IMG/VR virus record: IMGVR_UViG_2671180417_000010
Coordinates: 1 to 17,035 of that record
Reading direction: 5' to 3' (one strand)
Source of the DNA: a virus
Lineage: Duplodnaviria > Heunggongvirae > Uroviricota > Caudoviricetes
DNA: 17,035 bases
The position numbers were made by a program, and so were the translations under genes. Within the stretch, counting starts at the first letter, position 1; each line of letters starts with the position of its first letter. Of this stretch, positions 11,812 to 12,881 are shown one piece after another. The notes beneath the pieces are model-generated. The model ran no database searches and was not told the DNA's origin. It was given only the letters and a program-made list of their open reading frames with translations.

Positions 11812-11974
11812 CAATTAACCACAGCGCAACACTTCCAGAAAGTTTTGCCAGAAGGCCAGCTAATGCGGATATATCACCATCATTTAATTTATCAGGGTAC
11901 ACCTCAAGAAGGCGGCAAATGATTTCAACCTGCTGCGCTCTTTCCGCAATTTCGTTTAATGTAAACTCCTGCAT
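11783..11974 (-). CDS. Hypothetical protein (63 aa), acidic/helical
   Basis: ATG at 11972..11974 overlaps the upstream stop (TAATG). Confidence 0.45.
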   Translation of the reverse strand: MQEFTLNEIAERAQQVEIICRLLEVYPDKLNDGDISALAGLLAKLSGSVALWLIDERFKRYEQ

Positions 11975-12159
11975 TACTGCACCCCCTTAATTTCATGAAC
12001 GGCATGGATAATTACGCCGGATAAATCGGCTTTAGCTGATTTGTTAATTACTGTGCTGATTGCAGCCTGGACGTTTTCGGCCTTCACGTTCTGCGTGATG
12101 CCAACGGTATAGCCGCGCTTATTAACAGCACGGGAAAAGACGCGGAAGGTTTTAAGCAC
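11974..12159 (-). CDS. Hypothetical small protein (about 61 aa, putative GTG start)
   Basis: Start set at GTG 12157..12159, which overlaps the stop of the preceding ORF in a GTGCTTAA arrangement that parallels ATGCGTAA at 12609..12616. GGGGG SD-like upstream. Starting at ATG 12261 would overlap the upstream gene by 110 nt. Confidence 0.35.
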   Translation of the reverse strand: MLKTFRVFSRAVNKRGYTVGITQNVKAENVQAAISTVINKSAKADLSGVIIHAVHEIKGVQ

Positions 12160-12616
12160 GGCACACCCCCTGACGAATACGGGCGACAAAAATAAGATGT
12201 GCGTGCGGCAGCTGTGCGCGTGCTTCGCGCTCAGTGGCAGCGGTAACGGTGAATATTGCAATGCTGTCTGTCAGGCACTGCATAAAGCGCCAGACAAAAT
12301 AAGGGCGTGTGAATACAGCCATGTGAAAGGCTCCTACAGTAATTTTAAGGAGTCTCGCTACTACGCTGTCAAACATGGTGGCGAGACGTAACAGGGTTGA
12401 CAGACTGGCACTGTAGAGACCAGCGAGCGCAAAGGCTCCCCCGTTACGCCCCGCCATAATGCGGGTATGGGTAGGTTTACGGACACAAAAAAACCGCATA
12501 TCGGAATGTAAGCGGCTGTCCGCTACAGTATTCAGGCTGTCAAACCCGGTCGCCATGTGGGCGACGGGGGAAGCATACAGCCCCGTGATAATTTTTTGCA
12601 AGCGGTTTTTACGCAT
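12152..12616 (-). CDS. Hypothetical protein (154 aa); its C-terminal 56 aa (from ATG 12322) is a paralogue of the ORF at 12609..12806
   Basis: ATG at 12614..12616 overlaps the upstream stop (ATGCGTAA). An internal ATG at 12320..12322 has its own GGAGCC SD and begins a segment sharing FVWRF, TEREAR and ARIRQG with the upstream ORF. The conserved TEREAR codons differ only by synonymous changes (GAG/GAA, GCA/GCG, CGC/CGT), supporting real coding. Confidence 0.45.
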   Translation of the reverse strand: MRKNRLQKIITGLYASPVAHMATGFDSLNTVADSRLHSDMRFFCVRKPTHTRIMAGRNGGAFALAGLYSASLSTLLRLATMFDSVVARLLKITVGAFHMAVFTRPYFVWRFMQCLTDSIAIFTVTAATEREARAQLPHAHLIFVARIRQGVCRA

Positions 12617-12881
12617 GATGTGACCCCTGACGAATACGGGCGGCGAATACAGCAACACAACCGGACGGGCAACGGCTACGCGCTTCGCGTTCCGTCCAGG
12701 CGGTTACGTGGATGATTTGAGATTCTCCGGCACTCAGGGCCAGAAAACGCCACACAAAGGCCGTTTGTGTGTGTACAAGGTGTGGTATATGATTTACGGC
12801 AACCATAACGGCTCCTAGTTTACGTTGTTGGTTAGAAGCCCTGCGAGTGGTAACGACACTTGCGGGGCTTTGTCTTTTCAT
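12609..12881 (-). CDS. Hypothetical small protein, paralogue family member (65 aa from ATG 12806, or 90 aa from ATG 12881)
   Basis: Two candidate starts: ATG 12806 (GGAGCC 3 nt upstream) and ATG 12881 (AAGGT upstream). C-terminal ...FVWRF...TEREAR...ARIRQG shared with 12152..12322. First gene of the minus-strand early operon. Confidence 0.45.
   Translation of the reverse strand: MKRQSPASVVTTRRASNQQRKLGAVMVAVNHIPHLVHTQTAFVWRFLALSAGESQIIHVTAWTEREARSRCPSGCVAVFAARIRQGSHHA

Follow-up and report, generated by a model that had tools for sequence, protein, structure and literature searches.

The locus described here consists of two small genes of the Icd-like family, icdA and icdB, and the spacer between them, and it lies in a Caudoviricetes record of IMG/VR (IMGVR_UViG_2671180417_000010), of which positions 1 to 17,035 were analysed (17,035 nucleotides, nt; hereafter the window). 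Its closest described counterparts are the immunity regions of phages P1, P7 and P4. In immI of P1 and P7 the elements follow one another in the order P51a/b, a1 and b1, c4, a2 and b2, icd and ant1/2, with b2 over the Shine-Dalgarno (SD) sequence of icd and the icd stop overlapping the start of the next gene (by 4 nt, according to the coordinates of P1 icd and ant1). The P4 immunity region comprises PLL, vis/alpA and eta, with PLE, seqA, the cI RNA, seqC and kil nested inside. Transcription from a constitutive promoter within eta ends through CI-seqA interactions, and Kil is the short product; full-length Eta is translated only from an upstream regulated promoter and with coupling to the gene upstream, and its translation prevents termination (PMC10111431). 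A related arrangement is the isrK-orf45-anrP locus of Gifsy-1 in Salmonella, in which an IsrK element resembling seqA and a1b1, with its own terminator, is combined with a translated open reading frame (ORF) conserved in nucleotides and not in amino acids, and with a stop-start overlap to a downstream regulator (PMC4825925).

In current descriptions of Gram-negative phage-inducible chromosomal islands (PICIs), those that form capsids among them, induction is by alpA and no repressor or RNA layer is included. The paper on capsid-forming PICIs reports that induction depends on alpA, and neither icd nor an antisense RNA is named in it (bioRxiv 10.1101/2022.09.08.507074). C4 and IsrK matches in Gram-negative PICIs have been noted before (PMC10111431), and Icd-like genes are listed in satellite surveys (PMC13612085). 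The region in the window is probably the immunity and early-leader control region of a capsid-forming PICI, built from P1 (immI) and P4 parts, and its anatomy points to self-regulation (immunity) of the early operon of the island. It is a known kind of system in a hybrid layout, in which sequence of P1 type is joined to a nested frame like that of P4 and to an additional Icd cistron upstream, and comparison with related loci adds combinatorial a/b specificities. For this comparison, about 160 related loci were gathered from IMG/VR and Escherichia coli records, and 40 of them (28 distinct sequences) share the layout of the window.

The window is like P1 immI in element order, in the position of b2 over the icd SD and in the overlap of the icd stop with the next start. 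It differs in its b specificity (ACUGUAG/CUACAGU, new among those seen, against GUUAGUG/CACUAAC in P1), in the gene after icd (the 61-aa orf61 instead of the Ant antirepressor), in having a second Icd-like gene where P1 has the C1 operator and P51a, in a frame that fuses the RNA region to icd, of which P1 has none, and in being carried by a satellite and not by a plasmid prophage. With P4 it shares the satellite lifestyle, with int, an alpA-family gene and a primase, an Icd-like protein encoded downstream of the RNA (P4 Kil, downstream of cI), and a frame that, in P4, is open for more than 200 codons upstream of kil through the RNA gene and starts at the end of the upstream gene. The P4 cI RNA is a member of the C4 family (74.9 bits) and seqA matches isrK/a1b1; however, the RNA and linker sequence in the window is of P1 type and not of P4 type, the long ORF is coupled to icdA, whereas in P4 it is coupled to an alpA homologue, and P4 has one Icd-type gene where the window has two. 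The Gifsy-1 locus has the same combination of an IsrK-like element, a translated ORF and a stop-start overlap, but there IsrK acts in trans as a translation activator, the downstream gene is a regulator of the antiterminator pathway and no Icd-like cistron is described (PMC4825925).

The Spacer Between the Two icd Genes

All features of the icd/C4 region lie on the minus strand, and the gene order is given 5' to 3' on that strand (coordinates in Table 1). By its RNA matches and its alignment with P1, the spacer is a C4-type antisense RNA together with its target sites, that is, an immunity switch of P1/P4 type. The predicted C4 RNA exposes the loops b' (CUACAGU, 12416..12410) and a' (CUGUCAA, 12403..12397), and its minimum free energy is -45.7 kcal/mol (z = -5.6). 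RNAs of this family are cut out of longer transcripts as stable species of about 77 nt; of this, the sequence of the window shows the conserved 3' end GCCACCA and the stable fold. The upstream targets are a1 (UUGACAG, 12543..12537) and b1 (ACUGUAG, 12529..12523), and the marginal score of this region is backed by the sequence identity of the collinear DNA to the a1/b1 sites annotated in P1. On the downstream side, b2 overlaps the SD sequence GGAG of icdB (12334..12331), and across the relatives it always abuts or overlaps this GGAG. The two exposed segments of C4 are complementary to upstream and downstream targets in the same transcript, as is characteristic of this RNA family.

The DNA from a1b1 to C4 is 79% identical to immI of phage P1 and 82% identical to phage D6, and the spacer is collinear with the annotated P1 elements P1c4 (P51b), a1, b1, c4, a2, b2, icd and the overlapping ant1. 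An isrK match covers 12565..12487 (34.1 bits, below the Rfam gathering score of 50; E = 2.6e-5). The candidate internal promoter aligns with the annotated P1 promoter P1c4/P51b (TTGACC-17-TATAGT) and is invariant in 15 of 17 island variants; we infer a promoter here from TTGCAA-18-TATGCT, which matches 8 of the 12 consensus positions. The initial annotation had described two related hairpin segments in the spacer and had suggested that part of the region could be structured RNA as in P4 immunity, to be checked with a covariance-model scan. The hairpins are present, one (GUCGCC-CACAU-GGCGAC, 12566..12550) adjoining the a1 site and the other (12387..12352; repeats D4 and I13) presenting the a2 site in its loop, and the scan, which returned both C4 and c4-a1b1, supports the RNA reading for the spacer, with a homologue of the P4 CI RNA and its target sites.

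The Icd-Like Genes and Proteins

Both small genes match the NCBIfam model NF033153 (host cell division inhibitor Icd-like protein), with 64.7 bits for icdA and 53.7 bits for icdB at a cut-off of 25, and the same model recognises P1 Icd (52.6 bits) and P4 Kil (76.1 bits). The two proteins are 49% identical (25 of 51 aligned residues) and have FVWRF, TEREAR and ARIRQG in common. The codons of TEREAR (ACG GAA CGC GAA GCG CGT in icdA, ACT GAG CGC GAA GCA CGC in icdB) differ at four positions, all synonymously. Each gene is preceded by an SD sequence GGAG, 5 nt (icdA, 12815..12812) or 8 nt (icdB, 12334..12331) 5' of its ATG, and each ends in a stop-start overlap of the kind seen in the translational coupling of P1 icd and ant1, namely ATGCGTAA with the next ATG at 12616..12609 for icdA and GTGCTTAA with the GTG of orf61 at 12159..12152 for icdB. 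Among 23-26 distinct relatives, icdA has a ratio of non-synonymous to synonymous polymorphism (pN/pS) of 0.53 and icdB one of 0.34 when read in the annotated frames, and shifted frames give 1.2-1.6; selection is purifying in frame and not out of frame, and both are therefore translated genes. By these measures, icdA and icdB are genuine protein-coding genes of the Icd-like family under purifying selection.

These results bear out much of what had been read from the letters before, that is, two related coding ORFs with GGAG and ATG, a TEREAR block that varies only synonymously, and a repeated unit of SD, ORF and overlapping junction. The description of the module as uncharacterised does not stand, as it belongs to the family of P1 Icd and P4 Kil, and in hundreds of E. 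coli genomes RefSeq already labels icdA and icdB Icd-like. A 1,351-nt query (11900..13250) has partial matches in 1,463 of 5,426 complete E. coli genomes, typically annotated as 'Icd-like protein (x2)', and a 751-nt query (12140..12890) is covered to at least 80% in 67 genomes. A protein search for icdA homologues gave almost exclusively sequences from Escherichia or Shigella, and a tblastn search with icdA against phage genomes returned one record only. Pfam gave no match for icdA, icdB or the 154-codon frame discussed below, and a PDB sequence search gave none either. An AlphaFold model has a small beta-beta-alpha-beta fold (mean predicted local distance difference test score 71.6) and no informative structural neighbour.

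The two genes are set differently with respect to the RNA. C4 lies directly upstream of icdB, with the b2 target over the ribosome-binding site (RBS), while icdA has a plain leader in which an Rfam scan found no C4 match at E up to 10, and icdA is a member of the Icd-like family by sequence only. A second role of C4 at the RBS of icdA was rejected, ACUAGGAG there forming only 3 contiguous pairs with b' and not varying with the b' allele.

Pairing and Alleles of the RNA Sites

The pairing between C4 and its targets was counted in 17 sequences (12 islands with P1, P7, D6, JL22 and ECO95). The loops a' and b' pair with a2 and b2 in 100% of 238 cells and with a1 and b1 in 98.3%, slid controls being paired in 20-51% of cells. 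Both sides have changed together in 8 of the 14 C4-target pairs (62 cells in the a1/b1 count and 65 in the a2/b2 count), and none of 500 shuffles reached the observed pairing or covariation. In the alignment of the loci with the window layout, the stretch is near invariant except at the three-way complementary RNA sites.

The island family has two 'a' alleles, UUGACAG/CUGUCAA and UUAGCAG/CUGCUAA, which are exactly the P1 allele and the P7 allele, respectively. There are at least six 'b' alleles, that of the window (ACUGUAG/CUACAGU) and CUACAG/CUGUAG, AGCAAAG/CUUUGCU, ACUUUGG/CCAAAGU, AAAUUGG/CCAAUUU and CAUCUGG/CCAGAUG, and the two sets occur in 10 combinations. Read in this way, the island alleles are the heteroimmunity logic of P1 and P7 widened to many specificities in a satellite family. 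The P1-like phages D6 (L166), P7 (L167), JL22 (L168) and ECO95 (L169) carry island 'a' alleles and other 'b' alleles. JL22 joins the 'a' allele of P1 to the 'b' allele of P7, and a and b sites therefore reassort.

Distribution of the Two icd Genes Among Islands

In about 120 of the related loci there is only one icd gene, which frequently has 95% identity to icdA, and nhmmer detected no C4 in them; with three seeds, it found C4 in only 45 loci. Rfam gave no matches in 20 representatives of the C4-negative loci, and at the gathering threshold the absence of C4 is therefore real. In these C4-negative loci, which number more than 100, the early genes begin with the lone icd, preceded by the same conserved leader, and its stop overlaps the start of the next gene; in L096 the homologue of orf61 stands directly after the lone icdA with an overlapping start. 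C4 and icdB are thus an optional cassette, present in a minority of the related islands sampled.

A recent tandem duplication giving rise to icdA and icdB was considered and rejected, because the genes are 56% identical in DNA (132 of 235 columns) and IcdB resembles P1 Icd (52% identity) no less than it resembles IcdA (49%). The earlier view of a module duplicated as a unit holds for the repetition of the unit itself and fails as a simple local tandem duplication, since icdB travels with a P1-type cassette that is absent in most islands. The tandem paralogues are best read, from this comparison of loci, as stacked modules, each ending in its own Icd-type coupling cistron and recombining through the icd genes. 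A P1-type cassette (a1b1-C4-a2b2-icd) would stand behind the island's own leader icd, and icd-icd recombination could remove it again.

Two complete modules in series, a P4-type isrK-C4-icd followed by a P1-type a1b1-C4-icd, are present in some islands (L002 3697..3885, L016 1782..1970 and L032 1783..1971). There are also chimeric Icd proteins (P0060, P0070, P0072 and P0091), whose N-terminal half resembles IcdA and whose C-terminal half resembles IcdB, as would be expected from recombination between icd genes that deletes the C4 cassette.

The Long Frame and the Control of the Early Operon

The ATG that overlaps the icdA stop opens a long frame that crosses a1/b1, the terminator, C4 and a2/b2 and enters icdB without a stop, so that the short Icd/Kil-type ORF is nested at the 3' end of a longer, RNA-spanning one (12616..12152). 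The 294-nt stretch (98 codons) up to the icdB ATG is free of stops, whereas the other two frames have 5 and 6, and by dinucleotide shuffling the probability that it is open by chance is 0.014 per lineage. Frame and overlapping ATG are intact in 38 of the 40 loci with the window layout. In 16 of the 17 distinct variants there are no stops, while the other frames have 4-8 (L016 has one frame with 1), and 16 of the 17 keep a length of exactly 294 nt, 1-nt insertions and deletions at three places being always compensated. A long open frame is also found in P4 (214 aa), in L044 (414 aa) and at a second, P4-type C4 module in L002, L016, L030 and L032.

From the precedents of P1 and P4, a weak constitutive promoter just downstream of icdA would give, in the quiescent island, a short untranslated a1b1-C4 transcript, the processed C4 would pair with a2/b2 and block the translation of icdB, and the loss of translational coupling together with transcriptional polarity would silence orf61 and the downstream replication genes. 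That a P1-type C4 switch controls icdB and the genes downstream of it in this manner is quite likely. Upon induction, the upstream repeat-controlled promoter would fire and icdA would be translated, after which ribosomes could re-initiate at the overlapping ATG and translate the 98-codon stretch over a1/b1, the terminator, C4 and a2/b2. A transcript translated in this way would become insensitive to C4, as eta translation does for P4 transcripts, a translational relay that is proposed here tentatively. Expression of icdA only from the repressor-controlled upstream promoter would leave transcripts of the internal promoter silenced. Still more speculative is the combined reading in which the tandem Icd genes would be the start and end points of a translational relay that passes ribosomes on at ATGCGTAA, unwinds the RNA elements and so overrides RNA immunity, with the a/b alleles as immunity groups through which capsid-forming PICIs and P1-like plasmid prophages would silence one another.

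Several points weigh against this model of C4 switch and relay. P1 and a relative from E. albertii (L006) have no long frame, the 98-codon stretch has a pN/pS of 1.14, that is, no constraint at the protein level, and in L024 the loss of one base from the U run of the IsrK-like terminator breaks the frame. The open frames of window type are not independent events, the island loci being related; the sites where transcription starts, the processing of C4, the internal promoter and the translation of the long frame are predictions, and the activity of Icd-like proteins in satellites is putative. The lack of the frame in P1, the high pN/pS up to the icdB ATG and the tolerated break in L024 would also be expected if the region were a pure P1-type immI module, with C4 acting on icdB just as it does in P1, icdA as an unregulated leader and no relay, the long frame never being translated as one unit and being open by accident or through RNA constraint, and a stretch that is near invariant outside the pairing sites gives substitutions few chances to make stops. 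This explanation is nevertheless rather unlikely, since the open frame, with its low chance probability per lineage, recurs in four sequence-distinct C4 contexts, its length is held at 294 nt by compensated indels, all 38 loci with an intact frame have the ATG that overlaps the icdA stop, and P4 eta provides a precedent (PMC10111431). As for L024 itself, the deletion (around 2340, on a contig shared with L087) could be a homopolymer sequencing error or a natural knock-out.

Two further explanations give the proteins the leading part. In the initial annotation the position of the module had suggested genes for helper interaction or interference, and the small proteins could in principle form a duplicated effector module directed at helper or host, with the RNA elements secondary. 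P1 Icd is annotated as a reversible inhibitor of cell division and P4 Kil has been described as cell-killing (PMC10111431); both show that Icd-like proteins can have effector activity, and an icd-type gene is the first of the early genes in most related islands. However, the two copies did not arise by a recent duplication, icdB clusters with P1 Icd and most islands lack it, conservation and covariation are at their strongest in the RNA sites and not in the proteins, and nothing tested points to interference with a helper, which makes an effector module improbable. The other explanation takes the 153-154-aa Icd-like protein annotated by PGAP/RefSeq as the true gene (L001 5991..6452, L002 2997..3461 and L003 2997..3461, three inspected records in which RefSeq lists no non-coding RNA there), with incidental Rfam matches inside, and a 188-aa family, phrog_29966, has the same layout. 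The N-terminal 98 residues, however, match no Pfam or NCBIfam family and evolve at the pN/pS given above, variation is confined to the three-way complementary RNA sites, and the DNA is 79% identical to the experimentally defined c4 region of P1, so that this is by far the least credible of the explanations. The long frame with its embedded C4 switch rather illustrates an annotation problem, as an RNA-containing frame is called a protein in RefSeq, and in P4 the Pfam family Phage_ASH (PF10554) matches, with 82 bits, residues 22-146 of the eta translation, the stretch that carries the seqA and cI RNA genes; the 98-aa stretch of the window has no match to this family.

For the islands themselves, the window points to two further layers of control in some of them, both putative, namely a P1-type antisense-RNA checkpoint with many specificities and, probably, a small DNA-binding repressor. 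Together they form a testable model for how islands stay silent and why related islands can coexist.

Island Context and the Upstream Region

Table 1. Features of the icd/C4 region and of its surroundings, with positions in the window.
Feature	Position	Strand	Remarks
alpA	13869..13681	-	about 870 nt upstream of the icdA start
YlcI/YnfO-family gene, 59 aa	13002..13180	+	NF041551 at 60.6 bits; divergent
Three direct repeats GTGGCTGACAC (candidate operators)	12909..12898, 12934..12923, 12979..12969 (span 12898..12979)	-	repeats D2, D3; around the upstream promoter
Upstream sigma-70-like promoter	12911..12939	-	TTGACG, 17 nt, TAATAT
Leader stem-loop of the icdA mRNA	12835..12871	-	tentative, z-score only -1.2
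icdA, Icd-like protein, 65 aa	12609..12806	-	ATG at 12806, stop 12611..12609; first early-operon cistron
154-codon open frame, in frame with icdB	12152..12616	-	ATG overlaps icdA stop (ATGCGTAA); counterpart of P4 eta
Candidate internal promoter	12572..12601	-	TTGCAA (12601..12596), 18 nt, TATGCT (12577..12572)
a1/b1 target region of C4	12529..12578	-	Rfam RF03163 (c4-a1b1) 46.8 bits, gathering 46.7, marginal; inverted repeats I3, I4
IsrK/seqA-like terminator hairpin, then U run	12487..12517	-	conserved in P1-like phages
C4 antisense RNA gene	12374..12461	-	Rfam RF01695 69.1 bits (gathering 45), full model 1-87 matched
a2 UUGACAG (12372..12366) and b2 ACUGUAGG (12340..12333)	12331..12372	-	pairs with C4 loops
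icdB, Icd-like protein, 56 aa	12152..12322	-	ATG at 12322, stop 12154..12152; position of P1 icd downstream of C4
orf61	11974..12159	-	GTG start overlaps icdB stop (GTGCTTAA); next early-operon gene; phrog_3672

Capsid-forming PICIs are recognised by int, alpA and primase genes combined with their own capsid, protease, portal, head-closure and terminase genes, without tail genes, in about 15 kb. By Pfam and PHROG matches, the genes of the window include int, alpA and those for a DUF927 primase, single-stranded DNA-binding protein (SSB), major capsid protein, prohead protease, portal, head-closure protein, HNH, TerS and TerL. No tail genes were seen within its 17 kb, the ends of the island not having been mapped, and by this gene content it is a capsid-forming PICI satellite island, like the EcCIEDL933-type islands in its gene set from int through TerL (bioRxiv 10.1101/2022.09.08.507074). 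On the 3' side of orf61 there are small genes, then DUF4222 and then the DUF927 primase.

The upstream promoter was the sole promoter-like site returned by a scan of 11900..13300, and two of the three GTGGCTGACAC repeats, which are candidate operators, overlap it. In related islands the repeats at this promoter are of other types (GTGGCTGAC, GTGTGTTTC, GTGAATACC, TGGTGCGAT, GTGTTCAAC, GCGCACACA and ACATGGTAA), and across the loci each repeat type is paired with a different allele of the divergent YlcI/YnfO-family protein. Because the allele switches together with the operator repeats, this suggests a role for the protein as an island-specific repressor acting at the upstream promoter. A hairpin is also found at the icdA leader position in L096 and L135, with different stem sequences.

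The gap between alpA and icdA is filled, on their strand, by a 263-codon open frame rich in Cys, Arg and Ser (12832..13623, minus strand), antisense to ylcI and labelled hypothetical by PGAP. It is open for more than 190 codons in 40 of 46 distinct relatives and either stops 11-28 nt short of the icdA ATG or continues in frame into icdA (356 aa, L096). It may be another translated leader like P4 eta; its pN/pS of 0.62 does not set it apart from an overlapping plus-strand frame, which has 0.50. Beyond the integrase, a sok antitoxin RNA (Rfam RF01794, 114 bits) at 16319..16493 on the minus strand marks a toxin-antitoxin locus of hok/sok type.

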